DNA of 64,000 bases, from assembly GCA_965261425.1 (NCBI GenBank), contig OZ253452.1:2275892-2339891 (forward strand), written 5' to 3'. Below the pieces are notes generated by a model that was given only the letters and a program-made list of their open reading frames with translations, searched no databases and was not told the DNA's origin. Positions 2,134 to 58,231 of the stretch are shown piece by piece; positions within the stretch are counted from its first letter, which is position 1; every line of letters starts with the position of its first letter. A program made the translations under genes and the position numbers. This stretch comes from Candidatus Spongiihabitans sp. (GTDB lineage Bacteria; Pseudomonadota; Gammaproteobacteria; Arenicellales; Poriferihabitantaceae).

Positions 2134-2136
2134 AAA

Positions 2137-19831: not shown

Positions 19832-21718
19832 CCTGACTTCGACGGTTGGCTCCATGCAGATCGCCCACAGCCCAATAAACATGCGGGGGTGGTAGAGAAG
19901 TTGGTTTGTAGTGCCTATTTAAATATTTGTGTTGACTTCGGTGATCGAATGGTATAGACTCACCCCATGTTCGTTCGCGTTAAATCTACACCCAATAGCC
20001 CAAGACAATCGGTTCAGATTGTTTCATCTGTGCGCGTCGGCGATAAGGTCAAGCAAAAGATTGTCCGTTATATCGGCATTGCCATGGATGACGATGAGTT
20101 AGTGCGATTGAAAGAGCTGGCCGAAGTCGTCAAGGCGAAGCTTGAAGCCCAGCATCAGCCCAGCCTGTTTCCGCCTGAGACGGTTGCCAAACAGATGATT
20201 GAAGCGAAAGCAGCCAAAGCGTCTAAAGCCACCTTGAATGTTGATCTGAGGCAGATGGTGGAAGAACAGCGGGTGGTGCTGGGCATCCATGAAGTGTATG
20301 GCGAGGTCTATCGCCAGTTATCATTCGATACCCTGTTGTCGCAGAGGCGGTATCGTGCTTCCCATGAAGCCCTGTTCCATTGCGTGATGGCACGCATTGC
20401 TAACCCTAAAAGCAAGCGCGGCAGCGTGCAGCACTTGGAGCAGGACTTTGGCGTTTCTTTGTCCTTAGAGAAAGTTTATCGGATGATGGATCAGCTTGAC
20501 GATAACACCATCAGCCGGCTGCAAACGATGACCTGTGAAGGTACGCGATCCTTGTTGCCTGGTGCCCTGGATGTGTTGTTTTTTGATTGTACGACGCTCT
20601 ATTTTGAGTCTTTCAAGGAAGACGAATTAAAACAAAATGGCTACAGCAAGGACTGTAAATTTAATCAGCCGCAAGTATTGCTGGCTTTGCTGGTCACCCG
20701 CGAAGGTCTGCCGGTCGGCTACGAAGTGTTCCCCGGTGCTACTTTCGAGGGCCATAGCCTAATCAGCGTTTTGAAGACGATGCAAGCGCGCTATGATGTT
20801 AGGAAAATGATCTTTGTCGCTGATCGGGGCATGCTTAATGAAGACAATCTGCATGCCCTGGATGAGGCGGGCGCTTATTACATTGTTGGGGCGAAACTAA
20901 AACAATTGCCAAGTGCACTACAAACCAAAGTATTGGATAAATCAGCTTATCAGGCGCTCGATAAAGGCGCATCAAGCGCAGCCGAGCTGACGCACAAGAA
21001 GAGACGACTCATTGTCTCACATTGTCCAAAGCGTGCGGATAAAGATCAACATGACCGACAAAAGGCAGTCGATCGGCTCATCAAGAAAATCGGTAAAAGC
21101 CAGAATCCCAAGGACTTATTAAATAACTACGGCTATAAAAAATTTCTGATTATCAAGGGAAAGACTAGCCTGAGTATCAACCAAGATAAAATTGCTGCCG
21201 AAAGCCGCTGGGACGGACTGCATGGTGTCATCACCAATTTGCCCGATACGCCGCATCAGGAAGTGCTATCACACTATCGCGGCTTATGGCAGGTCGAGGA
21301 GAGTTTTCGAATCACTAAACATGACTTGAAAGTACGGCCTATCTACCACTGGACACCCTCAAGAGTGCGTGCCCACATTGCCATTTCGTTCATGGCTTTT
21401 GCCTGCATCAGACAGCTAATGTATCGAATCAAGCTACAACACAAAGCCTTATCCCCTGAGGTTATCCGTAATGCCTTGATTCATGTGCAACATAGTGTAT
21501 TCAAACACAAGCGCACCAAGAAAAGCTATGTCATGCCTTCTCAAATCAATCCAGAGGCAAAAAAAATCTATGCTGTGATGGGATTAAAAGCGACCACCAC
21601 AGCTTACCCACTGTACTAATTGACATAATCCTTCAATATCTAGGCATTTGTAGTGCCTAGGTATTTTTGTGTTTCTTTATAAATCAATAGTTTATGAATA
21701 TGAACCGTCGAAGTCAGG
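19832..21718 (+). mobile_element. IS1634-family (IS4-related) insertion sequence, 1887 bp, apparently intact
   Basis: It has perfect 16-bp terminal inverted repeats: CCTGACTTCGACGGTT at 19832-19847, and its complement at 21703-21718. It carries a single 550-aa transposase ORF and is flanked by a 68-bp direct repeat. Confidence 0.85.
19967..21619 (+). CDS. IS1634-family DDE transposase
   Basis: The N-terminus MFVRVKSTPNSPRQSVQIVSSVRVGDKVKQKIVRYIG and the ~550-aa size match the IS1634 group pattern. The DDE region includes FVADRGM and YRGLWQVEESFRITK. Confidence 0.8.
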   Translation: MFVRVKSTPNSPRQSVQIVSSVRVGDKVKQKIVRYIGIAMDDDELVRLKELAEVVKAKLEAQHQPSLFPPETVAKQMIEAKAAKASKATLNVDLRQMVEEQRVVLGIHEVYGEVYRQLSFDTLLSQRRYRASHEALFHCVMARIANPKSKRGSVQHLEQDFGVSLSLEKVYRMMDQLDDNTISRLQTMTCEGTRSLLPGALDVLFFDCTTLYFESFKEDELKQNGYSKDCKFNQPQVLLALLVTREGLPVGYEVFPGATFEGHSLISVLKTMQARYDVRKMIFVADRGMLNEDNLHALDEAGAYYIVGAKLKQLPSALQTKVLDKSAYQALDKGASSAAELTHKKRRLIVSHCPKRADKDQHDRQKAVDRLIKKIGKSQNPKDLLNNYGYKKFLIIKGKTSLSINQDKIAAESRWDGLHGVITNLPDTPHQEVLSHYRGLWQVEESFRITKHDLKVRPIYHWTPSRVRAHIAISFMAFACIRQLMYRIKLQHKALSPEVIRNALIHVQHSVFKHKRTKKSYVMPSQINPEAKKIYAVMGLKATTTAYPLY

Positions 21719-42723: not shown

Positions 42724-43422
42724 ATGGCAGAAGAACAATTACCACCATTCATCGAAGACGATGAATCCGCTCGCGCAAGAGCATTCTGGAAGGCACATGG
42801 CAAGCCCATCATAGCGGGCGTTATTATTGGGTTGGGAGGAATCGTTGGTTTCAATTACTGGAAAAGTTCAGAGCAAGCCGAAGGAGAAAATGCCTCGTTT
42901 TTATTTGAGCGACTGCGCTCGGGGCAAGAGGGCATTGACATGAGTTTGCTGACCACCGAGTTAAAGAAAGAATACGCATCCACATCGTATGTGGAATTAG
43001 CCACCTTTGCGCTGGCAAGACAATTTGTCGAAAAGAATAATCTCGAATCGGCAGCACAGGAGCTTGCTTGGGTGGCGGATCATTCAACCGATTCCGGATT
43101 TCGGCATATTGCCCGATTACGGCTGGCATCGGTGTTGCTGGGGCAACAAAAACCCACTCATGCACTGGAAATATTGAGCGTAACGGATGAGGGTAGTTTC
43201 GGATCTCGATATTATGAGTTACTCGGCGATGCCTATCTACAACGAAGCCAAAGCAAACAGAAGCAGGACGGTGACAGCGCGCAAGCAAAAAGCGAATACC
43301 AAAAATGTCTAGAAACTTTGCCACAGGGCGCAGCCCACGCCAAATTGATTCAGTTAAAACTGGATAATGTTGAAAATACGCCCGCGAATACACCCGAAAG
43401 CACACTGGAAACCACCTTATGA
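42724..43422 (+). CDS. yfgM: YfgM-family TPR-like membrane protein (ancillary SecYEG subunit family)
   Basis: The N-terminal pattern ..FWKAHGKPIIAGVIIGLGGIVGFNYWKS.. and the position between hisS and bamB fit the family. Confidence 0.7.
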   Translation: MAEEQLPPFIEDDESARARAFWKAHGKPIIAGVIIGLGGIVGFNYWKSSEQAEGENASFLFERLRSGQEGIDMSLLTTELKKEYASTSYVELATFALARQFVEKNNLESAAQELAWVADHSTDSGFRHIARLRLASVLLGQQKPTHALEILSVTDEGSFGSRYYELLGDAYLQRSQSKQKQDGDSAQAKSEYQKCLETLPQGAAHAKLIQLKLDNVENTPANTPESTLETTL

Positions 43423-44588
43423 ACAAATATTGGTTGTTGGCGATTGTTGCCCTCATTGCTTTGCCACTGCTGTCGGGTTGTAAGAGCAAACAAGAAAAGG
43501 AATCCCTTTGGGGGATTTATCAGGAACCGATTCAGTCGCAAACCTTGCCACAAGACAGTGGCACAGATGAGTTAAAAATCTTGTGGGACAAAAATATTGG
43601 TAGCGGCGCGAGCGTAGGCTTCGCGCTATTGAGACCGGTTTACTACAAGGGCAGGATATACGTTGCCAATCGCGTTGGAACCGTGTTTAGTTTTGATTCA
43701 AAAACGGGCAGTACGGAATGGCAGCAAGCACTCAAGATGCCGATTTTTTCTGCCATTGGAGTGAATGATAATTTTGCCGTTGTGAGCCATGATAACGGCA
43801 ATGTGACAGCGTTAAATGCAAGCGATGGTTCGGTCGTCTGGCAGACTGCCCTCAAGCGTCAAATTTCAGCCATTCCAGTTATCGGCAAAGAACGGGTTCT
43901 TATTCGCACCGCAGATGGTTTGCTCATCGGTCTTGATATGCGTCAGGGCAACACCGTCTGGCAAGTCAAAAATGCAACGCCGGGATTGAGTGTGCATGGC
44001 GATTCCATACCGGTCATCACTGGCGAAGCGGTTTTGACCGGCTTATCGAGCGGTAAGTTGATCGCCAATAGCGTCATCACTGGCAGGGATTACTGGGATG
44101 TCGAAATTTCCTTCGTTCGCGGTCACAATGAGCTGGAAAGACTGACCGATTCGGATACGGTTCCCATTGTTCGCGGCGCAACGGTCTATACAGCCACTTA
44201 TCAGGGCAGTGTCATCGCATTGCAATTACAAGACGCTACGGTCAAGTGGCGTGCAAAAATATCGACTCGATTGCCGATGGCGTTGGCACAAAAACGTCTT
44301 TTCGTTATCGGTGAATTAGGGGAAGTCATTGCTTTGAACGCCGATGACGGCAGTATCATTTGGCAACAGCAGGCATTTCGCGGACACGGAATCAGTCAGC
44401 CGGTGGTGCTGAATAACCGTGTGGTAATCGGTGATTCAAGTGGCAGAGTGCATACCCTGGATATTGAAACTGGAATACTTATAGAAAGCAAGAAAGTGGT
44501 GTCTGGCGCGGTGGTTGGTATCATCACCGAAAATTCACAATTCGCCGTATTCTCATCCGCCGGCAATATCTCTGTATTAACCCTGTAA
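43419..44588 (+). CDS. bamB: Outer-membrane protein assembly factor BamB (PQQ-like beta-propeller lipoprotein)
   Basis: It has a lipobox (LLSGC), repeated ..DG.V.W.. propeller blades, and conserved synteny. Confidence 0.88.
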   Translation: MNKYWLLAIVALIALPLLSGCKSKQEKESLWGIYQEPIQSQTLPQDSGTDELKILWDKNIGSGASVGFALLRPVYYKGRIYVANRVGTVFSFDSKTGSTEWQQALKMPIFSAIGVNDNFAVVSHDNGNVTALNASDGSVVWQTALKRQISAIPVIGKERVLIRTADGLLIGLDMRQGNTVWQVKNATPGLSVHGDSIPVITGEAVLTGLSSGKLIANSVITGRDYWDVEISFVRGHNELERLTDSDTVPIVRGATVYTATYQGSVIALQLQDATVKWRAKISTRLPMALAQKRLFVIGELGEVIALNADDGSIIWQQQAFRGHGISQPVVLNNRVVIGDSSGRVHTLDIETGILIESKKVVSGAVVGIITENSQFAVFSSAGNISVLTL

Positions 44589-44629
44589 CTGGTGTAAATA
44601 GGGCGATAAGTAACCGCTCTGTAATCTTT

Positions 44630-46000
44630 ATGATGCTTCCTGTACTCGCCTTGATTGGTCGTCCGAATGTCGGAAAATCCACTTTATTTAATAAACTAAC
44701 ACGCTCCAGAGATGCGTTGGTTGATGACTCCCCTGGGGTGACTCGAGACCGATTATATGGGCGCGGTCGAGTCGGCAATAAACCATACCTGGTTGTTGAT
44801 ACGGGCGGGATAGAGGGCGAGGAGGGGGATTTTACCGCGCTGGTAAAACAGCAAGTGGAACAGGTCATAGAAGAAGCGCAAGTGGTTTTGTTTCTGGTTG
44901 ATGCGAGTGACGGCATGGTTTCTCGGGACAAGGAAATTGCCATGCAGTTGCGGCAAAGTGGCAGACAGGTTTATCTGTTGGTCAACAAGTCTGAAGGGAT
45001 TGCCCCGGCGCTGGCAGCTGCAGAATTCCAGGAGCTGGGATTAGGCAGTCCGATTGCGGTCTCGGCAAAGCGCGGGGACGGCATCGCTGGGTTTATGAGC
45101 GAGCTCATGAAGTCGTATTCAGAGATAGACGCGGAAGATGACACGGATGTGCCTAAAATTGCCATTGTCGGGAGACCGAATGTCGGCAAATCAACCCTGA
45201 CCAATAAACTGGTGGGCGCGCATCGGGTCATTGTCAGCGATATACCCGGAACCACCCGGGACAGCGTCCATATTCCGCTTGTGATTGAGCAGGATGAGTA
45301 CATCTTGATTGATACTGCCGGAGTAAGAAAAAAATCCAAAGTCGATGAGGTGATTGAAAAGTTTTCGGTCATAAAAACACTGCAAGCGATTGAGACCTGC
45401 CATGTTGTATTGCTGGTTGTTGATGGCGCAAGCGAAATCGGCGCGCAGGATGCGACCATCGCCGGAATGGTGCGTGATTTTGGTCGCTCTATTGTTGTGG
45501 TGGTCAACAAATGGGATGGCTTGGGGGAGCGACAAAGAAATAAAATCAAGCAACAACTAAAAAATAAATTTGCCTTTCTGTCCTACCCGGAAATAATTTG
45601 CATCTCCGCCCTGCATGGTTCAAATATAGCGGAAGTGATGCCGGCTGCACGCCGTGCCTATGATTCGGCGATGATTCGCATAGCCACTTCCAGTTTGAAT
45701 CGAACCCTTGAAAACGCCCTGACTAAAACCCCACCACCGATGCACAACCAGCGACCGGTACGGCTAAAATTCGCTCACCAAGCCGCAAAAAACCCGCCGG
45801 TAATCGTTATCCACGGCAATCAGGTAAACACCATACCCGATTCGTATCGGAAGTATTTATCCAGATACTTTGCTAAGGCTTATAACCTGACCGGCACACC
45901 AGTACAGATTATCCCCCGCGTTGCTGAAAACCCATTCAAGCTACGCAACCCAGCAAATACCGTGTTTAAGAAACGCACTGGAAGAAAACGAAAACTTTAA
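44630..46000 (+). CDS. der: Ribosome-biogenesis GTPase Der (EngA)
   Basis: It has two GTPase domains (GRPNVGKSTLFN and GRPNVGKSTLTN) plus a KH-like C-terminus. Confidence 0.95.
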   Translation: MMLPVLALIGRPNVGKSTLFNKLTRSRDALVDDSPGVTRDRLYGRGRVGNKPYLVVDTGGIEGEEGDFTALVKQQVEQVIEEAQVVLFLVDASDGMVSRDKEIAMQLRQSGRQVYLLVNKSEGIAPALAAAEFQELGLGSPIAVSAKRGDGIAGFMSELMKSYSEIDAEDDTDVPKIAIVGRPNVGKSTLTNKLVGAHRVIVSDIPGTTRDSVHIPLVIEQDEYILIDTAGVRKKSKVDEVIEKFSVIKTLQAIETCHVVLLVVDGASEIGAQDATIAGMVRDFGRSIVVVVNKWDGLGERQRNKIKQQLKNKFAFLSYPEIICISALHGSNIAEVMPAARRAYDSAMIRIATSSLNRTLENALTKTPPPMHNQRPVRLKFAHQAAKNPPVIVIHGNQVNTIPDSYRKYLSRYFAKAYNLTGTPVQIIPRVAENPFKLRNPANTVFKKRTGRKRKL

Positions 46001-46017
46001 CGACTTTCATAAATCTT

Positions 46018-47116
46018 GAATTCACATAATAAGTGCAACACTCCTAAGTCAGTCAAAGGGTACACTCGTACTCTTTTAACTGAACGGAAAAAAGCGGTGC
46101 GGCGAGCTCACCGAGCCGGAGTAAAACATGACGAGATATACCCATTTGACTGAACACGAAAGAGACCACATTTACCTCATGAATCAGCAGCATTGTACAC
46201 TGACAGAAATCGCTAAAGCCATGGGCAGAAGTTAAGTCAACCATCAGCCGTGAAATTAAACGCAATACCGGGGGCAACGGCTATCGCTACAAACAAGCCC
46301 ACCGCTTTGCCCAAACGAGGCATCAGCAAAAGCCCAAGCACATCAAACTCAATGACGAGTTAAAGCTTCGGCTCGGTGAGCCGTAGCTGGTGGGTCGTTA
46401 TATCGATACTTGCGCCATCAGGGTAAGAAATATCGCAAGCGTTATGGACAGAACGATTACCGCGGACGCATCCCCAATCGGGTTGATATTGCTGATAGAC
46501 CCAGTATAGTGGACAGTCGCTCGCGTATAGGTGATTGGGAAGCTGATTGTGTTATCGGTAAAGGTCGTCAAGGGGTGTTTGCCACCCTTGCTGAACGCAA
46601 AAGTAGGCTCTATCTCGCGCTTCGGACTAAGAACAAAACCGCACCGGTTTTTGCTCCTGCAAAACCGGCATACAGTACATCCCTGTACATAAAAAGAAAC
46701 CAACGCGGCTATACTCAGGTTGTTAGCGCATATGAAACAACATGTAATGACACTAACCTTTGATAACGGCAGAGAATTTTGTTGGCATAGTGAGCAGTTC
46801 GGCGAGCTCACCGACCCGTTGCCAAACAACTCGAGTGTGAAACTTATTTTGCTAAACCGTATCACTCTTGGGAGCGTGGCTTGAATGCCGAATAATCATC
46901 TGGCACAATGGCTTGCTCATACTTTTTGCTCAGGCAGTTTTTTCCAAAGAAGATGCCTTTGCATAAAGTCACCGAAAAAGAGCTGTTCAAAGCGACCGAT
47001 TTAATGAACAACCGACCTAGAAAATGTTTGGGGTATAACCCTTATGGAGGTCTTTTCCCGTGCAATGGGAATAGATCATAATATAAACCCGAGTGTTGCA
47101 CTTATGGGTTGAATTC
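46018..47116 (+). mobile_element. Degraded IS30-family insertion sequence (transposase pseudogene ~46128-47080 with stops and frameshifts)
   Basis: The imperfect 26-bp terminal inverted repeats match at 22/26: GAATTCACATAATAAGTGCAACACTC at 46018, and the complement of GAGTGTTGCACTTATGGGTTGAATTC at 47091. Across frames the fragments read MTRYTHLTEHERDHIYLM, RIGDWEADCVIGKG, TFDNGREF, PYHSWERGLN and LMNNRPRKCLGY. Confidence 0.8.
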
Positions 47117-47143: not shown

Positions 47144-47239
47144 GAGACTATGCAAGAACCCAACATCCGTCATTCCCGCGTAGGAGACTGTGCAAAAATC
47201 CAACATTCGTCATTCCTGCGAAGCAGGAATCCAGTCAAA
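47144..47239 (+). repeat. Two tandem left-end fragments of the MITE family
   Basis: The fragments are GAGACTaTGCAAGAAcCCAACATCCGTCATTCCcGCG.. (47144) and GAGACTGTGCAAaAAtCCAACATtCGTCATTCCTGCGAAGCAGGAATCCAG (47184). Confidence 0.75.
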
Positions 47240-47342
47240 TAAATATTCTTATCAAAACCTAGCCGTCATTTTCAATTATCAATTATCAATTTTCAATTGC
47301 CAGAGAGTGGACAAACAAGTGCGTCTGTATTAAAGTCCAAGT

Positions 47343-47648
47343 ATGGCTTCTAATGCTCTCGCCTTTGATACACATAGTTTCGTCAAACGTATGACTGCGG
47401 TCGGTATGCCTGTGCAATAAGCCGAAGCACTTGCCGAATCTCAAGCTGACCTACTCAACGCCAACCTCGCCACCAAAACCGAATTAGCCAACACCGAAGC
47501 CACACTTAAAGCGGATATTGCCAACACCGAGTCCGTACTTAGAGCAGAAATTGCCAACACCGAAGCACACCTAATCAAGTGGATGGTTGGCTTAACAATG
47601 GGTGGCGTAGGAGTAATGGTTGCACTGTTCAGCTTTTTCCTCCGCTAA
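47343..47648 (+). pseudogene. Short DUF1640-like coiled-coil/TM-anchor gene with premature stop at codon 26
   Basis: It is collinear with 47811-48464. It has TAA at 47418-47420, where the paralogue has CAA. The rest of the frame stays open to 47648. Confidence 0.7.
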
Positions 47649-47810
47649 CAAATAATCATCAAATAATCATGGGCACACAATCATTTTTCGTCCATGATAC
47701 AGGGTGATTCTGACTCGGTGGGTGTTGCTCAATTAGAATGTTATTTAGCATGGTTAATTTTCAATTGCCAGAGAGTGGACAAACAACAGCGTCTGTATTA
47801 AAGTCCAAGT

Positions 47811-48464
47811 ATGGCTTCTAATGCTCTCGCCTTTGATACACACCATTTCGTCAAACTTATGACGGCAGTCGGTATGCCTGTACAACAAGCGGAAGCACTT
47901 GCCGAATCTCAAGCTGACCTACTCAACGCCAACCTCGCCACCAAAAACGAATTAGCCAACACCGAGGCCACACTTAAAGCAGAAATTGCCAAAACTAACG
48001 CAGAAATTGTCAACACCGAGGCCGCACTCAAAGCGGATATTGCCAACACCGAGTCCGTACTTAGAGCAGAAATTGCCAAAACTAACGCAGAAATTGTCAA
48101 CACCGAGGCCGCACTCAAAGCGGATATTGCCAACACCGAGTCCGTACTTAGAGCAGAAATTGCCAAAATCGAGGCCGCACTTAAAGTAGAAATTGCCAAC
48201 ACCGAGTCCGTACTTAGAGCAGAAATTGCCAAAACTAACGCAGAAATTGTCAACACCGAGGCAGCACTTAAAGTAGAAATTGCTAACACCGAGTCCACTC
48301 TTAGAGCAGACATTGCCAAAATCGAGTCCGCATTTAAAGTTGAAATTGCCAACACTAACGCAAAAATTGCCAACACCGAAGCACACCTAATCAAGTGGAT
48401 GGTTGGCTTAACAATGGGTAGCGTAGGAGTAATGGTTGCACTGTTCAGCTTTTTCCTCCTCTAA
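47811..48464 (+). CDS. DUF1640-like protein with an expanded coiled-coil repeat region and a C-terminal TM anchor
   Basis: The N-terminus FDTHHFVKLMTAVGMPVQQAEALAES...LATKNEL and the C-terminus HLIKWMVGLTMGSVGVMVALFSFFLL fit the bacterial DUF1640/CCDC90-like pattern. The central region consists of ANTExxLKAEI-type repeats. Confidence 0.65.
   Translation: MASNALAFDTHHFVKLMTAVGMPVQQAEALAESQADLLNANLATKNELANTEATLKAEIAKTNAEIVNTEAALKADIANTESVLRAEIAKTNAEIVNTEAALKADIANTESVLRAEIAKIEAALKVEIANTESVLRAEIAKTNAEIVNTEAALKVEIANTESTLRADIAKIESAFKVEIANTNAKIANTEAHLIKWMVGLTMGSVGVMVALFSFFLL
47955..48380 (+). repeat. Intragenic tandem repeats: 33-bp (11-aa) units with 24+30-bp variants, including a perfect 87-bp tandem duplication (47988-48074 = 48075-48161)
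   Basis: Read directly from the sequence. The short paralogue has only about three units. Confidence 0.9.
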
Positions 48465-48571: not shown

Positions 48572-48641
48572 AATTGAAAATTGAGAATTGAGAATTGAAA
48601 ATTGAGAATTGAAAATTGGGAATTGAGAATTGACAATTGAG
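48572..48641 (+). repeat. Heptanucleotide tandem array, ~10 x AATTGAR
   Basis: The array reads aattgaa aattgag aattgag aattgaa aattgag aattgaa aattggg aattgag aattgac aattgag. Related arrays lie at 47270-47298 and 48716-48740 (opposite orientation). Heptamer doublets lie at 5286-5299, 12501-12521 and 47120-47133. Confidence 0.9.
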
Positions 48642-48653
48642 AAGCAACCTAGT

Positions 48654-48906: not shown

Positions 48907-49383
48907 ATGCATCGATCACTTTATATTGACCCCGAAAAATGTACTGGCTGTTTGCAATGCGAAATGGCTTGTTCCTACGAAAACGAGGGCGTATTTAACC
49001 CAGCGAAATCGCGCATCAAGGTTTTTAACTTCCACGATGAAGGGCGGTTCGTGCCTTATACCTGTACCCAGTGTGATGAAGCATGGTGTTTACATGCCTG
49101 TCCGGTTGAAGCAATTACCATGAACAAGGAAACTGGGGCGATGGAGGTTGCCGATTCGGTTTGTGTTGGCTGTAAGGTTTGCACCATCGCCTGTCCATTT
49201 GGGACGGTCAATTACAATCAAGATACTGGCAAAGTAATCAAATGCGATTTATGTGGTGGCGACCCGCAATGCGTCGCTGCTTGTCCCACTGATGCGATTA
49301 CCTACGTGGATGCCGATGCAACCGGGCTCGAAAAAATGCGCTCATGGGCTGCAAAAACCGATAACTCAGCGTCAGCAATCTAG
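48907..49383 (+). CDS. aorA: Poly-ferredoxin-like electron-transfer subunit (four CxxCxxCxxxC(P) motifs), AorA-type
   Basis: The motifs are CTGCLQCEMAC, CTQCDEAWCLHACP, CVGCKVCTIACP and CDLCGGDPQCVAACP. It is named by analogy to the AorABC enzyme of Aromatoleum aromaticum. Confidence 0.7.
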   Translation: MHRSLYIDPEKCTGCLQCEMACSYENEGVFNPAKSRIKVFNFHDEGRFVPYTCTQCDEAWCLHACPVEAITMNKETGAMEVADSVCVGCKVCTIACPFGTVNYNQDTGKVIKCDLCGGDPQCVAACPTDAITYVDADATGLEKMRSWAAKTDNSASAI

Positions 49384-49393
49384 GAGGTTTATT

Positions 49394-51250
49394 ATGACTT
49401 GGGCGAAAAAAGTACTGCGTGTGGATTTAAGTAAAGGCACTGTTGCCGAAGAAGCACTGAACATGGATTGGGCGGCACAATACATCGGACAGCGGGGGCT
49501 TGGCACCCGCTATCTGGTTGAAGAAACCGACCCTCAATGCGATGCCCTTGGAGCGGACAATAGACTCATCTTTGCCACCGGTCCCCTGACTGGCACAACG
49601 GTGTCAACTGCTGGTCGCTATTCGGTCATCACCAAAAGCCCGTTGACCGGTGCGGTGGCGTGTTCAAATTCGGGTGGATTCATCGGTGCCGAGCTTAAAA
49701 TGGCGGGTTGGGACATGATCATTTTTCAAGGCAAGTCCAAATCGCCGGTGATGTTGCGAGTGGAAAATGAAGTTGCCGAATTGGTGCCTGCGGATGATTT
49801 ATGGGGTAAGACGGTTTGGGAAACCGATAAACTAATCCATCAGAAGTATCAGGATCCACAGATTAGAGTGGCTGCCGTGGGTCGTTCAGCCGAAGCAGGT
49901 TGCTTGTATGCTGGTATCATCAACGATTTGCATCGTGCCGCTGGTCGCTCTGGTGTAGGCACCGTGATGGCATCGAAAAACCTAAAAGCGGTTATGGTGC
50001 GCGGAACCCGTGGTGTGGGCAACATCAAGGACCCAATTCGGTTTATGAAAAGTGTTGCTGAGCAAAAGCAGGTATTGGCTGATAATGCGGTCACCGGTCA
50101 GGGATTGCCGGCACTGGGGACACAGGTGTTGATGAACGTCATCAACGAAGTGGGTGCGTTGCCAGCGAATAACATGCGTGATGTTCAGTTTGACGGTGCC
50201 AACAACATTTCTGGGGAAGCCATGCTTGAACCGCGTAAAAGTGACGGCAAGCCCAATTTGACCACGAATGCCGCATGCTTCAGTTGTACCATCGCTTGTG
50301 GTCGTATTTCGACGATTGATAAAGAACATTTCTCGATTGAGAACAAGCCACAGTACTGGGGTAATTCTGGCGGATTGGAGTACGAAGCGGCTTGGGCAAT
50401 GGGCGCGGATACGGGGGTCGATGATATTGATGCGATTACCTACACCAATTTTATCTGCAATGAAGATGGTTTCGATCCAATCTCATTTGGGGCGACTGTG
50501 GCAGCGGCAATGGAATTATTTGAACTCGGTGCGATTACCACCAAGCAAACCGATGGTATGGAGCTGGTTTTCGGCTCCGCTAAAGCCTTGACTTGGTGTG
50601 CCGAGAAGGTAGCAACGGGTGATGGCTTTGGAAAAGATTTGGGGCTTGGCTCCAAGCGGTTATGCGAAAAATATGGTCATCCCGAATTGTCAATGACGGT
50701 CAAAGGGCAGGAATTTCCGGCTTATGACCCCCGCGGTATTCAAAGCATGGGGCTGACCTATGCCACCGCAAATCGGGGTGCTTGCCATTTGCGAGGTTAT
50801 ACCGTGGCTGCCGAAATACTCGGCATTCCCGAAAAAACCGACCCGCTGGTGACTGAAGGCAAGGCGGGCTTAGTGAAAGCGTTTCAGGATGCCACTGCCG
50901 CAGTTGATTCCATGGGGCTGTGCGTATTCACCACATTTGCTTGGACGCTGGATAATATGGCACCGCAAATTGATGCCGCCTGTGAAGGCGATTGGAGTGT
51001 GGAGCGATTGCTCGAATCTGGGGAGCGAATTTGGAATCTGGAACGGGATTACAATTTGAAAGCCGGGCTGACTGGTGCCGATGACACTTTGCCATCCAGA
51101 TTGCTGAAAGAGGCTGCCAAGACCGGTCCCGCCAAAGGCAAGGTCTGTAATTTGGGCGACATGTTGCCAGAATACTATTCGTTGCGGGGCTGGACTACGG
51201 ATGGCGAATTGACCGATGATGTTAGAACCAAGTTTACCTTGCCGGCTTAA
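49394..51250 (+). CDS. aorB: Tungsten-pterin aldehyde:ferredoxin oxidoreductase family catalytic subunit, AorB-type
   Basis: The start is taken at MTWAKKVLRVDLSKGTV (ATG 49394, 6 nt after GGAGG). It shows the AFOR N-terminal domain pattern, a CFSCTIACGR cluster-binding motif, and a later GLCVF cysteine. The listed ORF start at 49253 lies inside aorA. Confidence 0.85.
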   Translation: MTWAKKVLRVDLSKGTVAEEALNMDWAAQYIGQRGLGTRYLVEETDPQCDALGADNRLIFATGPLTGTTVSTAGRYSVITKSPLTGAVACSNSGGFIGAELKMAGWDMIIFQGKSKSPVMLRVENEVAELVPADDLWGKTVWETDKLIHQKYQDPQIRVAAVGRSAEAGCLYAGIINDLHRAAGRSGVGTVMASKNLKAVMVRGTRGVGNIKDPIRFMKSVAEQKQVLADNAVTGQGLPALGTQVLMNVINEVGALPANNMRDVQFDGANNISGEAMLEPRKSDGKPNLTTNAACFSCTIACGRISTIDKEHFSIENKPQYWGNSGGLEYEAAWAMGADTGVDDIDAITYTNFICNEDGFDPISFGATVAAAMELFELGAITTKQTDGMELVFGSAKALTWCAEKVATGDGFGKDLGLGSKRLCEKYGHPELSMTVKGQEFPAYDPRGIQSMGLTYATANRGACHLRGYTVAAEILGIPEKTDPLVTEGKAGLVKAFQDATAAVDSMGLCVFTTFAWTLDNMAPQIDAACEGDWSVERLLESGERIWNLERDYNLKAGLTGADDTLPSRLLKEAAKTGPAKGKVCNLGDMLPEYYSLRGWTTDGELTDDVRTKFTLPA

Positions 51251-51253
51251 ATT

Positions 51254-52549
51254 ATGGCGACTGACTGTGCCACGAAGTATCTCATCATCGGTTCCGGTCC
51301 GGCAGGGGTGGTTGCGGCTGAGACGCTGCAAAAACTGGATGCGACCGCTGAAATAACCCTGATTGGCGATGAGCCTGAACCGCCCTATTCGAGAATGGCA
51401 ATTCCTTATTTGCTGATCAATAATATTGATGAGTCGGGGACTTATCTGCGTAAGCAACCAGAGCACTATTCGGGCAAGGGCATTGAGGTGGTGGTCGATC
51501 GGGTTGAGTCTGTGGATGTTGCCACAAAGACAGTGTCCCTGTCGCAAGGCGGTTCGCGCCAATACGACAAGTTGCTTGTAGCGACCGGTTCACGACCGCT
51601 CACGCCACCGATTCGTGGCATTGAGCATAAAAAGGTGACCAGTTGCTGGACGCTGGAAGATGCCAGAAAAATTGCCAACGGTATCAAACCGGGTGCGCCG
51701 GTGGTGCTGATTGGTGCGGGTTTTATCGGTTGTATTATTTTGGAGGCACTGGTTGCGTCAGGGGCAAACCTGACTGTTGTTGAAATGGGCAATCGCATGG
51801 TGCCCAGAATGCTGGATGAAACCTGCGGTACCTTGCTTGAGACGTGGTGCCAGCAAAAAGGCGTGAACGTCATGACCGCTTGTCAGGTTGATGCGATTGA
51901 ACCATTTGGCGATAACCTGCGGGTTAAAATTAGCGGCTCTGGACAAGTTGAAAAGGCGGGAGTTGAAACGGCGATGGTCGAAGCCGAGTTGGTTATATCT
52001 GCGGCTGGAGTACAGGCAAATGCGGCGTTTTTAGCAGACTGCGGGGTTGCGCTTACCAACGGCGCGGTGGTTATTGATGAGTATATGTGTTCTTCGGTCG
52101 CCGATATTTATGCGGCTGGAGATGTGGCTTGTGGCAAGGATTTTTCCACCGGCGAATACAGCGTGCAAGCGATACAGCCGACTGCTGTCGAGCATGGTCG
52201 GGTGGCAGCGCATAATATGTTTAAGCATGGCTCGGTGCGTCATCAGGGCAGTGTGCTGATGAACGTGTTGGATACCATTGGATTGATTTCAACCTCATAC
52301 GGTCAATGGCAAGGTGTTGAAGGCGGGCAGAGTGCGAATTTGCTGGATCGAGATCATTTCCGTTACATCCAGCTTCAATTTGATGGCGAGCGATTGGTGG
52401 GTGCGAATACATTAGGGTTCACCCAGCATATTGGGGTCTTGCGTGGGTTGCTACAAGGTCGCTTCAAATTGGGCAAATGGAAGGACAAACTGATGGACAA
52501 TCCATTGTTGCTGACGGAGGCATATCTTGCTGCGACTCAGGGTAGTTAA
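51254..52549 (+). CDS. aorC: FAD/NAD(P)-binding pyridine-nucleotide-disulfide-type oxidoreductase, AorC-type
   Basis: It has two dinucleotide folds (IIGSGPAGVVAAE and VLIGAGFIGCIILEAL) and starts 4 nt after aorB. Confidence 0.75.
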   Translation: MATDCATKYLIIGSGPAGVVAAETLQKLDATAEITLIGDEPEPPYSRMAIPYLLINNIDESGTYLRKQPEHYSGKGIEVVVDRVESVDVATKTVSLSQGGSRQYDKLLVATGSRPLTPPIRGIEHKKVTSCWTLEDARKIANGIKPGAPVVLIGAGFIGCIILEALVASGANLTVVEMGNRMVPRMLDETCGTLLETWCQQKGVNVMTACQVDAIEPFGDNLRVKISGSGQVEKAGVETAMVEAELVISAAGVQANAAFLADCGVALTNGAVVIDEYMCSSVADIYAAGDVACGKDFSTGEYSVQAIQPTAVEHGRVAAHNMFKHGSVRHQGSVLMNVLDTIGLISTSYGQWQGVEGGQSANLLDRDHFRYIQLQFDGERLVGANTLGFTQHIGVLRGLLQGRFKLGKWKDKLMDNPLLLTEAYLAATQGS

Positions 52550-52593: not shown

Positions 52594-52842
52594 ATGCAAA
52601 TTGAATTTAAGTTATTCGCAACATTGATGTGCTATTTACCGGCGGGCGCGGTGAAAAATGTCATCACTCTGGAGGTTGCAGAAAACACCACCCCACACCA
52701 GTTAATTGACACTTATTCCGTGCCGCGTTGCGATGTCCATCTGGTTTTAATTAACGGCATCTATGTCGATAAAGCGGGTCGAGATTTACCCATGAAGTCG
52801 AATGATACGCTGGCAGTTTGGCCACCCGTTGCGGGTGGGTGA
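52594..52842 (+). CDS. MoaD/ThiS-family small sulfur-carrier-like protein (ends ..VAGG)
   Basis: 82 aa with a beta-grasp-size C-terminal Gly-Gly. It is a paralogue of 53133-53381. Confidence 0.7.
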   Translation: MQIEFKLFATLMCYLPAGAVKNVITLEVAENTTPHQLIDTYSVPRCDVHLVLINGIYVDKAGRDLPMKSNDTLAVWPPVAGG

Positions 52843-53132
52843 GGCATCAATCCTACTGTTCTGAACTAGGCTTTACCCATGCCGAATTGCTCAGGTGTTT
52901 GCCATCGGCAGTTGCCCCCTATGTGATTAGCAAAAGAGCCGAAAACAGCTATGCGATGTCCTTTGAGAAGCGGGTTGCTTGGTTGTCTCTTGAGGCGGAG
53001 AAAACCCGCGAAATAGGATCAATTAAATTGCCAGTAACGGCAATCACCATTGAGTTTGAAAATTTTTCTGAAATTCAATATATCGCGTTTATGAATCGAT
53101 TCAAAAAATACTTACATCGAGGCGGAGGCTGA
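52839..53132 (+). CDS. Hypothetical ~97-aa protein ending ..YLHRGGG, coupled on both sides
   Basis: GTG 52839 overlaps the upstream TGA (GTGA). Its own TGA (53130-53132) abuts the next ATG (TGAATG). I recognise no family. The listed ORF uses TTG 52818. Confidence 0.45.
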   Translation: MRHQSYCSELGFTHAELLRCLPSAVAPYVISKRAENSYAMSFEKRVAWLSLEAEKTREIGSIKLPVTAITIEFENFSEIQYIAFMNRFKKYLHRGGG

Positions 53133-53381
53133 ATGAAAATAACAATCAAGTTTTTTTCAAGCCTGATGGATTACTTGCCGGATACTGCGGAGGGCAATGC
53201 GCTTGAGCTAACCGTCAGCGATAATCAAACCCCAAACCAGTTGCTGGATCGCTATAAAGTGCCACACCAAGAAGCACAAATGATGATGTGCAACGGCGCG
53301 TTCCTGCCGGTCGAAGACCGTGATCGTCCCTTGTGCGATGGTGATGTTCTGTCAATATGGCCCACGATTCAGGGCGGATAG
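53133..53381 (+). CDS. MoaD/ThiS-family small sulfur-carrier-like protein (ends ..IQGG)
   Basis: 82 aa and collinear with 52594-52842 (M.I..K.F..LM.YLP........L.V....TP.QL.D.Y.VP...........NG.......RD.P....D.L..WP...GG). Confidence 0.7.
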   Translation: MKITIKFFSSLMDYLPDTAEGNALELTVSDNQTPNQLLDRYKVPHQEAQMMMCNGAFLPVEDRDRPLCDGDVLSIWPTIQGG

Positions 53382-53464: not shown

Positions 53465-54613
53465 ATGGGTATAGTAACGGGAAAAGCTCCAAGGGTCTGT
53501 GCAAGTAGAGGCGGAAAGGATTTTATTAAATGCTTGAAGCGCAATAAGAATGTTGTAAAAACCGAAGAAGAAGTTGTTCGCCAAAAAGTGCTTGATTTTC
53601 TTATCAATGAGAAAGGAATAGACAAGGTAAACATTGAGCTGGAAGTGAATGTCCCATATATTCTTGGAAAGCAACAACGTGGTCGCGCAGATATTGTGAT
53701 TTATGATGAGAATAGAGAGCCGTGTATTGTGATTGAGTGCAAGGAACCCAGCATTCCAAATATTGATGACGGGGCAGTTAAACAAGCAGAAAAATATGCC
53801 ACGAAATTGAAGGCGAAATATATTTGGGTGACTAATGGCGATGCTGATTTATTTGTTGAGAAGCAAAAATCGGCATGGAAAAAGGTGCAAACAATAGAGC
53901 AGTTGGGCACTATTTCTCCTTTTCCGATGAGCGTCAATAGACCTTTCAAACCAATCGGAGAATACCTTGAACTATTGAGCAAAGAGCAAGCAAACGAAGT
54001 CGTGCTGGAGTTGTCGGAGGGGCATAACAAGGAAAAACTTGATTTTATGCTAGCAATACACCAGTTAATTTTTAAGACCGATTTCAATTTGCCGTTTTCT
54101 TTTCGGGGTGTTCATATACTAGAGGATCGTGGCATCAGTTATTTAAATTTCGGAACGGGGGGAGGTGAGTGGTGTGGGTACTACCGCGTATTGTTGGTGG
54201 CAACGGAGGGACGGGTTGAAACGGTTGCAGTTGCTACTCAACAGTATCAACACGAGTCTCAACACGGTAATGCTTTATTATGTGTTGGATTTATAAAGGA
54301 ATCTCGTCATCATCATGCGCTACAGTTGCAACTCGAGGACTGTGACAAAACAAAAGATGGCTGGGAAATTTGGCACGATAGAAGTATGAGCCAGACATCA
54401 CGAGAAACCGTATCAGAAGCCGTCATTGAGAGCGGAAGAGAGGATTTGATTGTCAACGACGAGGACGACGATAAACCTTGGATTTATCTTGGTGATTTGC
54501 CCAAGAGGAATAATGTAACTTGGACAAACTCAAAAAAGATGTTGGCGAATCTCATTCATTATGCATTAATTCGTACCGAATTAAGAGATGCGAGAAAAAC
54601 AACAAAGAAATGA
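53465..54613 (+). CDS. HsdR_N-like (PD-(D/E)xK restriction-endonuclease-fold) N-terminal domain protein with an uncharacterised ~230-aa C-terminal region
   Basis: EEEVVRQKVLDFLINEKG...RGRADIVIYDENREPCIVIECKEPS...AVKQAEKYATKLKAKYIWVTNGD matches the type I restriction enzyme R-protein N-terminal domain pattern (D..E.K core). Confidence 0.55.
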   Translation: MGIVTGKAPRVCASRGGKDFIKCLKRNKNVVKTEEEVVRQKVLDFLINEKGIDKVNIELEVNVPYILGKQQRGRADIVIYDENREPCIVIECKEPSIPNIDDGAVKQAEKYATKLKAKYIWVTNGDADLFVEKQKSAWKKVQTIEQLGTISPFPMSVNRPFKPIGEYLELLSKEQANEVVLELSEGHNKEKLDFMLAIHQLIFKTDFNLPFSFRGVHILEDRGISYLNFGTGGGEWCGYYRVLLVATEGRVETVAVATQQYQHESQHGNALLCVGFIKESRHHHALQLQLEDCDKTKDGWEIWHDRSMSQTSRETVSEAVIESGREDLIVNDEDDDKPWIYLGDLPKRNNVTWTNSKKMLANLIHYALIRTELRDARKTTKK

Positions 54614-54685: not shown

Positions 54686-55723
54686 TTGTTAAAAGACACG
54701 CATAATCGACCGTTACACGATTTAAGAATCTCGGTTACCGACCGATGTAATTTTCGTTGCGGGTATTGCATGCCAAAAGACGTGTTTGGCAGGGGTTACC
54801 CGTTTCTGAAATCCAGTGCGTTGTTGCAATATGATGAGATTGAGACGCTGGTCAGGATTTTTGCCGCGCTTGGGGTAAGGAAAATTCGTTTGACCGGTGG
54901 GGAGCCGTTGTTGCGTAAGGATTTGGAGCAGCTCATTATCAGGCTGGCTGCAATCCCCGATATTGAAGATATTGCGATCACAACCAATGCTTCGTTGCTC
55001 ACCCCAGCCCGTGCTAAATCGTTGCAGGAAGCGGGGGTAGGGAGAATCAATATCAGTTTGGATGCCTTAACAACGGCAGTTTATGAGATCATCAATCCCA
55101 TTTCTTGTCCATTGCAAGATGTTCTGAATGGTATCAATCATGCTTTGAATGGCGGATTTGAGTCGGTCAAAATCAATACCGTTGTTCAAAAAGGCATCAA
55201 TGATGGAGAGATTTTGCCGTTGGTGAAACATTTCAGAGGTAGTGGTGCGATATTACGATTTATCGAATTTATGGATGTGGGTAACCATAATCATTGGAGC
55301 ATGGATGACGTGGTCAGTGCCAGAGAAATAATCGATCTGATTAACCCGATCTATCCGTTACAGCCGGTTGGGGCAAATTATGAAAGCGAGGTGGCAAAAA
55401 GATGGCAGTTTGTCGATGGTCAGGGGGAAATCGGGATCATATCTTCAATAACCCAACCATTTTGTGGCGGCTGTGCCCGAGCCAGATTATCCGCCAAAGG
55501 CGAATTGTTTACCTGTTTGTTTGCCACTTCCGGTTATGACCTGAAGCAATGGTTATCGCAAAACCTATCGACGAGCGAACTCACGGAAAAAATATCATCT
55601 ATCTGGGCTAGGCGCGATGATCAATACTCCATGTTAAGAAGCCAAAACCCGAAAGCAGCCTCGGTCAATAAACTGCTCGGGAAACAATCCCAAAAAGTCG
55701 AAATGTCCTATATCGGTGGTTAA
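54686..55723 (+). CDS. moaA: GTP 3',8-cyclase MoaA (radical SAM, molybdopterin/tungstopterin biosynthesis)
   Basis: LRISVTDRCNFRCGYCMP, GGEPLLR and the C-terminal CGGCARARLSAKGELFTCLF motifs are present. The only available start is TTG 54686, directly after an in-frame TAA. Confidence 0.9.
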   Translation: MLKDTHNRPLHDLRISVTDRCNFRCGYCMPKDVFGRGYPFLKSSALLQYDEIETLVRIFAALGVRKIRLTGGEPLLRKDLEQLIIRLAAIPDIEDIAITTNASLLTPARAKSLQEAGVGRINISLDALTTAVYEIINPISCPLQDVLNGINHALNGGFESVKINTVVQKGINDGEILPLVKHFRGSGAILRFIEFMDVGNHNHWSMDDVVSAREIIDLINPIYPLQPVGANYESEVAKRWQFVDGQGEIGIISSITQPFCGGCARARLSAKGELFTCLFATSGYDLKQWLSQNLSTSELTEKISSIWARRDDQYSMLRSQNPKAASVNKLLGKQSQKVEMSYIGG

Positions 55724-56560: not shown

Positions 56561-58231
56561 ATGATTGATTATAACGATTCCAACCAACGTACTATCGCAG
56601 AATTTGACTGGCCGTTTCACACCGCTCTTGATGCACACAACCGCTGGGTGAAACTAGGTCAGTGCATTCCATGGGATGGGTTAGCACAGGGCTATCATAA
56701 AAGCCTCTCGTCAAAGCGGGGTCGGGCAGCAAAAGATGCTCGTTTAGTCATCGGTGCGGTGATCATCAAACACAAACTAGGGTTGTCTGATCGTGAAACG
56801 GTGAGTCAGATTCAGGAGAATCCGTATCTGCAATACTTTGTCGGGCTTGCCGGTTATCAAAGATCAGTCCCGTTTGTACCCTCGTTGCTGGTTGAAGTGC
56901 GCAAACGGATGGGGGATACTGTTTTTGAAGTGTTCCATCAAGCGATTATTGGTGCTGTGGAAAAGGCGCAGGTCGTGCCGCAACGCAGCGTTAAGGATGG
57001 TTTGAAGGCATCCACACAGACCAACAAGTCGGGTGATGAATCAGAGCCAGAGTCCGTGCCAGAGTCCGTGCCAGAGTCGAAACCAGAACCAGAATCCAAT
57101 CAAGACCCACAAGGGGAGGATAATTCCCCAATTTCGCCTGCCACCACTGTGGAAGCACCCAGCCACGAAGGTAAGTTGATAATCGATGCGACTGTGGCAG
57201 AGCAAGCGATACGGTATCCCACGGATTTAAGTTTACTGAATGAAGCGCGTGAGATGGCGGAACGGATTATTGACGAATTGTATCCACACACGGAGTTCAG
57301 TCAGAAACCACGCACCTATCGTCGCCAAGCACGTAAAGCTTTTCTCGGGTTGGTCAAACAGCGTCGTCCCAAGCGTCAAGCGACCCAACGAGCGATCAAG
57401 CAACAACTGCAATACTTGCGGCGCAATTTTGGTCATATTGAGTGTTTAATGGATTGTTTCCCGATGGGCACGGCGTTGCCTTTGTCACGCAGGCTGCTAT
57501 ACCACTACTGGGTCATTCAGCATGTCTATGCACAGCAATGGCAGATGTACCGTAACAAAAGCCGTCGCTGTGATAATCGGATTGTGAGCATTCATCAACC
57601 GTATGTGCGTCCGATTGTGCGAGGTAAGCAAGGTAAGTCGGTTGAGTTTGGTTCGAAGTTGAGCGTGAGTTTAACGGCACACGGGTTATCCCGAGTTGAT
57701 CATTTAAGTTGGGATGCGTTTCATGAGGGGCATGATTTGCAGGGTCAGGTTGAGCGTTACCATGAACGTTATGGTTGCTACCCCGAAAGCGTCATCGGTG
57801 ATCCGATATATGGTAGTCGAGAGAACCGGCATTACTTGAAAGGATTGGGCATCTATTTTTCGGGCAAGCCATTAGGCAGACCCAAACAGGTAACAGAAGC
57901 GAATCGGGAGGTGTTGAAGCAATTAAAAGCCCAACGCCGGGCGGATTACCTACAACGGATTCCAATAGAAGGCAAATTTGGTCAGGCAAAGAACGGTTAT
58001 CGGCTGAATTACATCCGTGCCAAACGAGCAGACACTTCGGTTGCATGGATCAACAGCATTTTCCTAGTCATGAACCTGCTCATCCTGCTGAAGGTCTTTT
58101 TTGTGCCCAAAATAAGGCGACTAATAGGGTCGATAACGAACACTGGGCGACACCAATTACGATTGGACGGGTACGGATCATGCCAATTGCTTGGCTGGAA
58201 CAGATTTGAATATCCAAAACCGACTTTGTGA
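56561..58231 (+). CDS. IS5/IS1182-type DDE transposase
   Basis: The N-terminal InsH-like region is NRWVKLGQCIPWD...LVIGAVIIKHKLGLSDRETVSQIQENPYLQYFVGL. The C-terminal DDE_Tnp_1-like region ends ..EGKFGQAKNGYRLNYIRAKRADT. An internal low-complexity tract, PESVPESVPESKPEPE, is present. I could not define the element ends. Confidence 0.7.
   Translation: MIDYNDSNQRTIAEFDWPFHTALDAHNRWVKLGQCIPWDGLAQGYHKSLSSKRGRAAKDARLVIGAVIIKHKLGLSDRETVSQIQENPYLQYFVGLAGYQRSVPFVPSLLVEVRKRMGDTVFEVFHQAIIGAVEKAQVVPQRSVKDGLKASTQTNKSGDESEPESVPESVPESKPEPESNQDPQGEDNSPISPATTVEAPSHEGKLIIDATVAEQAIRYPTDLSLLNEAREMAERIIDELYPHTEFSQKPRTYRRQARKAFLGLVKQRRPKRQATQRAIKQQLQYLRRNFGHIECLMDCFPMGTALPLSRRLLYHYWVIQHVYAQQWQMYRNKSRRCDNRIVSIHQPYVRPIVRGKQGKSVEFGSKLSVSLTAHGLSRVDHLSWDAFHEGHDLQGQVERYHERYGCYPESVIGDPIYGSRENRHYLKGLGIYFSGKPLGRPKQVTEANREVLKQLKAQRRADYLQRIPIEGKFGQAKNGYRLNYIRAKRADTSVAWINSIFLVMNLLILLKVFFVPKIRRLIGSITNTGRHQLRLDGYGSCQLLGWNRFEYPKPTL

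Follow-up and report, generated by a model that had tools for sequence, protein, structure and literature searches.

Why would a bacterium line up three small genes that all end in Gly-Gly, if the middle product resembles neither of its neighbours? This question is raised by a 64,000-nucleotide stretch of DNA from Candidatus Spongiihabitans sp. (contig OZ253452.1, positions 2,275,892 to 2,339,891; this whole stretch is referred to as the window), in which two genes of the MoaD/ThiS type, aorD and aorE', flank a gene for a 97-amino-acid protein, here called X, downstream of the genes aorABC of a tungsten aldehyde oxidoreductase (AOR). An initial annotation had taken the three open reading frames (ORFs) for either two carrier systems plus a novel partner or a dedicated maturation relay for the tungsten cofactor. 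As set out below, X is a genuine gene and belongs to a large, widely conserved and unannotated family, and the locus is best explained, with a probability of about 0.6, as an accessory module of aorABC in which X would be a partner or carrier in tungsten cofactor maturation that works by its tail. The three genes are arranged as follows.

aorD (ORF1): 52594..52842, plus strand; putative AOR-linked MoaD/ThiS-type sulfur-carrier protein, 82 amino acids, ATG start, C-terminus WPPVAGG
X (middle ORF): 52839..53132, plus strand; 97 amino acids, GTG start, C-terminus ..RFKKYLHRGGG directly before the stop codon; probable AorE-type protein
aorE' (ORF3): 53133..53381, plus strand; putative second MoaD/ThiS-type paralogue, 82 amino acids, ATG start, C-terminus WPTIQGG

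The coordinates, lengths, Gly-Gly ends and junctions given by the initial annotation were all recovered on the sequence: aorD and X overlap in GTGA (52839-52842), with the GTG start of X inside the aorD stop, and X and aorE' abut in TGAATG (53130-53135), where the ATG of aorE' directly follows the TGA of X. A mechanical ORF call offers TTG at 52818 as the start of X, and its relatives begin at the four-nucleotide overlap, mostly in the form ATGA.

A large unannotated family with a conserved tail

A word-indexed search returned 21 clusters of close X homologues (51-100% identity), all of which end in RF[KR]KYL[HQ]RGGG, and a profile search against 1.84 billion representatives extended the family to 546 clusters (50% identity) at E ≤ 1e-3. 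Tail statistics were taken from the 150 listed of these 546 representative matches, from which a repetitive protein of 456 amino acids (P0167) was left out as spurious. All 149 genuine listed matches (56-152 amino acids) align up to their own last residue, 148 of them end in GG and 140 in [RK]GGG. In the alignment of 150 sequences (about 25-35% identical to one another), G96 and G97 occur in every one (150/150), R/K94 in 148 and G95 in 146 sequences; the other near-invariant positions are R57 and F88 (146 each), P65 (144), M10 (141) and F84 (137). As R57 is the only near-invariant polar residue outside the tail region, this conservation pattern, read from the alignment, does not look enzyme-like.

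A by-product of a GGAGG ribosome-binding site for aorE' was considered as the origin of the GGG tail and rejected. All four synonymous Gly codons are in use across loci, and the tail is kept in loci where no operon gene follows X; GGG is therefore selected at the protein level.

X matches no Pfam or NCBIfam family at E ≤ 1, none of 100 family members matches any Pfam family, sequence searches of the PDB with X profiles gave chance matches only, and plasmids searched by tblastn with a typical member of the family yielded nothing. The source-given names of family members are all 'hypothetical protein'. The initial annotation, which likewise recognised no family here and had tied its reading to the conservation of X and its glycines, is thus borne out on both points by the family size and tail statistics given above. 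That X is a spurious ORF or, alternatively, a highly diverged beta-grasp MoaD is a proposition to which we give practically no credence: the gene is small, starts with GTG and lacks database annotation, as a spurious ORF might, but its conservation across hundreds of clusters, at identities as low as about 25%, and the synonymous codon variation speak against this, and the diverged-MoaD version is contradicted by the structure models and profile comparisons described next.

Predicted fold of X

AlphaFold2 models of X were confident with either 21 sequences (predicted local distance difference test, pLDDT, 89.1; predicted template-modelling score, pTM, 0.79) or 150 sequences (pLDDT 91.6, pTM 0.80), and both have one topology, E-H-E-E-E-E-E-H, comprising beta(4-10), alpha(14-24), five antiparallel strands (29-74) and alpha(78-92), followed by a low-confidence HRGGG tail. 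X is thereby modelled not as a beta-grasp protein but as an alpha+beta domain (beta-alpha-beta5-alpha), possibly TBP/KA1-like, with a flexible tail. In a Foldseek search of the PDB, the top match was the KA1 domain of SAD kinase (4yom_A, template-modelling score, TM, 0.63), with SRPBCC/Bet v 1-type proteins, a CIPK regulatory domain, the N-domain of OGG1 and the two-domain protein 1v8c among the further matches. Other than 1v8c, the top 50 contain no chain of the ubiquitin, MoaD or ThiS kind. Consistently, hhalign of X against 33 neighbouring MoaD-like proteins gave a probability of 0.6%, and ThiS matches none of 100 members of the X family. The view of the initial annotation that the middle ORF is unlike the flanking beta-grasp proteins, for which it had proposed structure prediction and a Foldseek search as a check, is hence well supported by both models.

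The KA1/TBP-like proteins (4yom_A, 2zfd_B, SRPBCC/Bet v 1) and 1v8c resemble X in its predicted topology (TM 0.5-0.63), yet share only 6-15% identity with it, none at E ≤ 1e-3, and are best regarded as fold analogues, not demonstrated homologues; we know of no such analogue that ends in GGG. The match to 1v8c, a 'MoaD-related protein' of T. thermophilus with two domains, has a TM of about 0.5 and a probability of about 1.0 and does not resolve which domain is matched. We take the C-terminal domain of 1v8c to have a TBP-like fold in SCOP; if so, a MoaD fused to an X-like domain would already be present in a solved structure.

The flanking MoaD-type proteins

On sequence grounds, aorD and aorE' encode putative AOR-linked MoaD-type sulfur carriers. 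Both pass the gathering cutoff of Pfam ThiS (PF02597; 28.5 bits for aorD and 23.9 bits for aorE', cutoff 22.5) and also match Pfam Ub-Mut7C (PF14451; aorE' at 1.5e-7), and their matches to the NCBIfam MoaD and SAMP1 models are below cutoffs only. With 40% mutual identity across all 82 residues in an ungapped alignment (E 1e-25), they are the MoaD/ThiS-like paralogues that the initial annotation had seen in them. The free C-terminal Gly-Gly of aorD (..PPVAGG) and aorE' (..PTIQGG), each directly before the stop codon, is kept in orthologues, and the tails align to the archaeal-type MoaD structures 2g1e and 1vjk (FPPVAGG motif). The PPVAGG terminus recurs in 79 aorD orthologues upstream of X. Orthologues of aorE' (ending P[TA][IM]QGG) were found only in 15 of the loci L001-L016 of our sample, namely those reaching beyond X, and the second MoaD is specific to a sponge-symbiont Arenicellales/Poriferihabitaceae clade; nearest to the window are gammaproteobacteria associated with sponges (Candidatus Spongiihabitans, Arenicellales, Poriferihabitaceae).

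Some aorD orthologues carry tails beyond Gly-Gly (..VAGGAD, ..IAGGSD and ..IAGGLE among L031, L036 and L085; ..VAGGCRGLNIEIL in L022), which would need C-terminal processing like that of ubiquitin/SAMP precursors, or are assembly errors. The aorD copy of L076 is frame-disrupted. A third MoaD/ThiS-like ORF type, which lacks a Gly-Gly end (..ALSGPVP[YFW]S..YG[SA][PA]VV), adjoins X in four metagenome loci (L068, 2606-2965 on the minus strand; L070, 146-610; L081, 2674-3129 on the minus strand; L093, 9191-9607).

Organisation and conservation of the AOR locus

Upstream of the three genes lies an operon of the three-subunit bacterial tungsten AOR type, as in aorABCDE of Aromatoleum aromaticum (PMC6365974); the order in the window is aorA-aorB-aorC, then aorD-X-aorE', with moaA further downstream.

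aorA: 48907..49383, plus strand; poly-[4Fe-4S] ferredoxin-like small subunit (Pfam Fer4_7/Fer4_11 and related families)
aorB: 49394..51250, plus strand; tungsten-bis-pyranopterin catalytic subunit, 618 amino acids (Pfam AFOR_N 1.3e-73, AFOR_C 9.3e-132)
aorC: 51254..52549, plus strand; flavin adenine dinucleotide (FAD)/nicotinamide adenine dinucleotide (NAD)-binding subunit of the pyridine nucleotide-disulfide oxidoreductase family (Pfam Pyr_redox_2 1.9e-52)
HSDR_N_2 gene: 53465-54613; 382 amino acids, type I restriction (PD-(D/E)XK-like) N-terminal domain, between aorE' and moaA
moaA paralogue: 54686..55723, plus strand; radical-SAM protein of the first pyranopterin-synthesis step (Pfam Radical_SAM and Mob_synth_C)

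The aorA product is 90-97% identical to that of the first gene of syntenic operons, and its subunit role is named after AorA (PMC6365974). For aorB, the mechanical ORF starts at GTG 49253, and ATG 49394 agrees with the 618-residue orthologues (orthologue range 614-619 amino acids). The top NCBIfam match of aorC is PadH-like. Since most relatives have moaA shortly after aorE', the HSDR_N_2 gene looks like an insertion into the aor cluster; L009 shares with the window an extra stretch of about 1.5 kb between aorE' and moaA. No Moco (molybdenum cofactor) riboswitch or other Rfam family was found around the operon, and a promoter and terminator scan from aorC to moaA gave no signal above chance. 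Among all ORFs of at least 150 amino acids in the window there is no MoeB/ThiF, MoaE, MoaC or MoeA.

How general this arrangement is was read from 13 loci in GTDB genomes, 80 metagenome loci and 14 places located by exact protein look-up (a few contigs are represented twice), with neighbouring ORFs classified by BLASTP and hidden Markov models; L017, a partial genome-scan match inside a larger ORF, was left out as spurious. As the metagenome loci had been picked with a tail-containing pattern (alignment A4) and are biased to ..QRGG termini, the tail statistics above were taken from the representative search instead. The gene directly upstream of X is MoaD-like in 81 and aorC in 3 of the 84 loci with at least 700 nucleotides of upstream sequence; two of the latter (L023 and L025, Thioalkalivibrio sp. 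HK1) have the order D-A-B-C-X. Where the upstream flank measures at least 5.8 kb, aorA, aorB and aorC are together present in 43 of 45 loci and a MoaD-like gene in all 45. The two loci without aorC (L063, L088) read aorA-aorB-D-X, a two-subunit variant. Five-gene A-B-C-D-X operons occur in L020-L022, L024, L026 and L028-L030, among others, these 8 being non-sponge loci from alpha- and gammaproteobacteria, and the four-nucleotide overlap from aorD to X is found in most sponge-clade loci.

Downstream of X, 63 loci with at least 3 kb of sequence fall into those with moaA followed by a convergent moeB (21), those with a second MoaD and moaA (15, the sponge clade) and those with no tested gene (25). 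In most of L001-L016, moaA comes shortly after aorE', and in a further 21 loci it comes after X; moeB lies within 3.5 kb of X in 22 of the 63. A particularly compact case is L027, with aorC-aorD-X-moeB-tupB-tupC-moeA, where the X stop overlaps the moeB start as TAATG. From these upstream, operon and downstream counts it follows that the conserved unit is aorAB(C) plus a MoaD-like gene plus X, embedded among tungsten-cofactor genes. The trio proposed initially therefore has to be narrowed: the general unit is the pair MoaD plus X, which was seen in about 100 loci and accompanies aorAB in 45 of 45 loci with enough flank, and the third gene is real but confined to the sponge-symbiont clade. Likewise, the absence of a MoaE or MoeB partner, which the initial annotation had noticed, holds for the window but, in the case of MoeB, not for the related loci with a nearby moeB. 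Its suggestion of two carrier systems with a novel partner or of a cofactor relay fits the tungsten-cofactor context (aorABC and moaA; moeB, tupBC and moeA in relatives), but not as a property of a trio, since the trio is not general.

The position of X bears on two alternatives. Directly after, and coupled to, a moaD-type gene, X holds the slot of moaE in classical moa operons, and the moaD-like gene followed by X with a four-nucleotide overlap mirrors moaD-moaE. As MoaE (PF02391) is found in none of 13 annotated X neighbourhoods, X could be imagined to replace it and to convert cyclic pyranopterin monophosphate to molybdopterin for AorB together with the AorD thiocarboxylate. We consider this quite improbable, because X has neither sequence nor fold similarity to MoaE (no PF02391 match at E ≤ 1, no MoaE structure among the Foldseek matches), shows one invariant polar residue outside its tail and no enzyme-like set of conserved residues, and has its own Gly-Gly end, a terminus that MoaE is not known to have; moreover, a housekeeping moaE may sit elsewhere in the genome.

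Less credible still is a structural or regulatory AOR subunit that has no part in cofactor chemistry and, for instance, caps AorAB filaments or regulates their length. Such a role would fit the strict linkage of X to aorAB(C) and the existence of AorAB filaments capped by AorC (PMC10413684). However, AorD and AorE are absent from the purified A. aromaticum enzyme (PMC6365974), X stays with the MoaD-like gene where aorC is missing, and in L027 it stands beside moeB, tupBC and moeA.

Two side observations concern this neighbourhood. Four Spongiihabitans loci (L005-L007, L009) have an insertion of 0.7-2.3 kb between aorB and aorC. Furthermore, a yfgM(TPR_21)-bamB-der block (42724-46000 in the window) adjoins the aor operon and is found, inverted, in the distant A-B-C-D-X loci L020-L022 and L026; this shared neighbourhood suggests an old, vertically inherited chromosomal position of the aor operon and not a recent transfer.

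X and the published AorE

The A. aromaticum operon aorABCDE, in which aorD and aorE were both described as 'resembling MoaD' (PMC6365974, Arndt et al. 2019), is like the window in having Fer4, AFOR and FAD subunits followed by small accessory genes, and lacks the third accessory gene aorE'. The five-gene A-B-C-D-X operons match this published order, and thus X is probably the putative AorE (WP_041646407) by operon position; as the operon type was published as aorABCDE, X has probably been named already, and the fifth gene was likely mis-described as MoaD-like. No Aromatoleum protein is named among the X relatives in two profile searches and a cluster look-up of 10 high-GC members, and the reverse cloning primer in the published supplement does not reveal the C-terminus of AorE.

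The accessory genes matter for the enzyme. The specific activity of recombinant AOR, 4.5 U/mg with aorABC, rose to 16 U/mg when aorDE were added and to 85 U/mg when additional tungstate was supplied as well, at 1.06, 0.39 and 1.52 W per enzyme, respectively (PMC9295118 Table 1, Winiarska et al. 2022). By our arithmetic on these values, activity per W is about tenfold higher with aorDE, which points to cofactor quality, not metal loading. Among AOR-linked MoaD genes in general, a role in tungsten cofactor synthesis was proposed in PMC1779556 (Iyer, Burroughs and Aravind 2006), and the archaeal AOR-linked MoaD TK1065/UblC of Thermococcus kodakarensis contributes to AOR and FOR activity according to PMC11323500, which also states that the mechanism pairing particular Ubl carriers with particular tungsten enzymes is unknown. 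In the text searched of both papers, MoaD genes stand strictly adjacent to AOR genes, as aorD and aorE' do, with ferredoxin, MoaA and MoeB genes near; a second, non-beta-grasp GG-ended protein in such neighbourhoods was not found in that text.

Proposed role of X

In small proteins with Gly-Gly tails such as MoaD, ThiS and ubiquitin, the tail lets the terminal carboxylate pass along a narrow channel to the adenylation site of an E1-type enzyme or to an acceptor site of the MoaE/ThiG type. X is like the carriers MoaD, ThiS, Urm1 and the SAMPs in its small size, its flexible free Gly-Gly tail and its place beside molybdenum- or tungsten-cofactor genes, with moeB as the next gene in L027; it differs in the modelled beta-alpha-beta5-alpha fold and in having three glycines after a basic residue, and an activation of its tail would be an analogy to these carriers. 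Few conserved polar residues combined with an invariant flexible Gly-Gly tail lead us to propose that X is an AOR-specific, tail-dependent maturation factor, a reading that we hold with a probability of about 0.6-0.7. Specifically, X would act as a non-catalytic maturation factor for the tungsten-bis-pyranopterin cofactor of AorB, and its tail would enter a pocket built for MoaD-type Gly-Gly tails. This pocket would most likely be the ATP site of a MoeB adenylyltransferase, where the tail of X may be adenylated and then thiocarboxylated, so that X, acting together with AorD, could serve AorB as a second sulfur carrier or delivery adaptor with a fold of its own. Within the maturation-factor reading, we put such covalent activation of the tail at somewhat short of even odds. 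As a precedent, E1-like and ligase enzymes act on non-beta-grasp C-termini in the CD-NTase activated by Cap2 of the cyclic oligonucleotide-based antiphage signalling system (CBASS) and in the LysW amino-group carrier; these systems differ from X in belonging to other pathways and enzymes, and no Cap2, ATP-grasp or LysX-type gene is present in X clusters.

In its boldest form, X would be the first sulfur carrier or C-terminally activated protein outside the beta-grasp fold, with GGG adenylated by MoeB and X-COSH, alone or via AorD, giving sulfur to the AorB-bound cofactor; this we regard as unlikely. The delivered sulfur could then be the terminal sulfido or sulfhydryl ligand on tungsten. Sulfide stimulates enzymes of the AFOR family, and a sulfur ligand bound to W has been put forward as a possibility (PMC12727526); a terminal sulfur ligand supplied by X would, if true, explain both this stimulation and the roughly tenfold activity per W with aorDE (PMC9295118).

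The tail may instead never be activated. In this alternative, X is a non-covalent adaptor or chaperone whose globular domain binds AorD and/or apo-AorB, and GGG acts as a plug or tail mimic, for example, in a MoaE/MoeB-type pocket or in the cofactor funnel of AorB. Several observations would suit it: TBP-like, KA1 and SRPBCC folds typically are ligand- or peptide-binding scaffolds, X has few conserved polar residues, a dedicated E1 was not found in most loci, X sits in the post-moaD slot of moaE and is translationally coupled to aorD, and the match to 1v8c hints at a fusion of MoaD with an X-like domain, the matching domain not being resolved. On the other hand, a strictly terminal Gly-Gly, as in nearly all listed matches (148/149), otherwise marks adenylated C-termini, and a plug would be expected to tolerate variation or extensions. 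We therefore keep the adaptor as a serious though rather doubtful option.

Several points weigh against the tail-dependent maturation factor that we prefer. MoeB recognises the beta-grasp body of MoaD, and a TBP-like X would need another docking mode; no E1 gene is present in the window or in most loci. All structural statements on X come from AlphaFold models, none of whose Foldseek matches reaches E ≤ 1e-3. The published description of AorE as MoaD-like stands in conflict with the non-MoaD X, and because AorD and AorE were missing from the purified enzyme (PMC6365974), any interaction with AorB would be transient.

Other features of the window

About 260 nucleotides upstream of aorA, a 7-nucleotide tandem repeat, AATTGAG, is present in about 10 copies (48572-48643); it produces a series of weak promoter-like matches along with a sub-threshold Rfam match, and may represent a promoter region prone to slippage or phase variation. 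Further upstream, a CCDC90-like coiled-coil protein (47811-48464) contains 33/87/153-nucleotide tandem repeats (..NTEAALKADIANTESVLRAEIAKTNAEIV..) and is preceded by a degenerate partial second copy (47144-47574), with duplicated minus-strand ORFs of 52 amino acids at 47286-47444 and 47754-47912. Mobile elements bracket the aor cluster (19967-21619, 46410-47081 and 56561-58231), comprising two intact DDE transposases (DDE_Tnp_1; DDE_Tnp_1_2 with DUF772) and a fragmented transposase-like region. A 426-amino-acid protein (18515-19795) has a ricin-B lectin domain, which is eukaryote-like and as such plausible in a symbiont of sponges, and a Schlafen AlbA_2/HATPase_c_4 protein followed by a 907-amino-acid ResIII helicase (868-4860) forms a possible defence gene pair.

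Significance

Earlier work had already established the operon, AOR-linked MoaD genes and an 'aorE' gene. Apparently undescribed are the fifth gene as a large family with a non-beta-grasp predicted fold and an obligatory [R/K]GGG C-terminus, its almost one-to-one linkage with the AOR-linked MoaD gene, and the addition of a second MoaD in a sponge-symbiont clade, which results in three GG-terminated genes in a row. To our knowledge, only one fold, the beta-grasp shared by MoaD, ThiS, Urm1, the SAMPs and ubiquitin, has been linked up to now with a terminal Gly-Gly of this kind; a Gly-Gly tail on another scaffold would show that the logic of E1-type activation or tail insertion is not fold-bound. 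In practical terms, bacterial AORs are in development for acid-to-aldehyde/alcohol biocatalysis, and how active they are as recombinant enzymes is strongly affected by the accessory genes (PMC9295118). For the biology of these enzymes, X is a candidate for an enzyme-specific step in tungsten cofactor maturation that may target cofactor or sulfur to a given apo-enzyme, and it thereby bears on the question of the sulfur ligand on tungsten.

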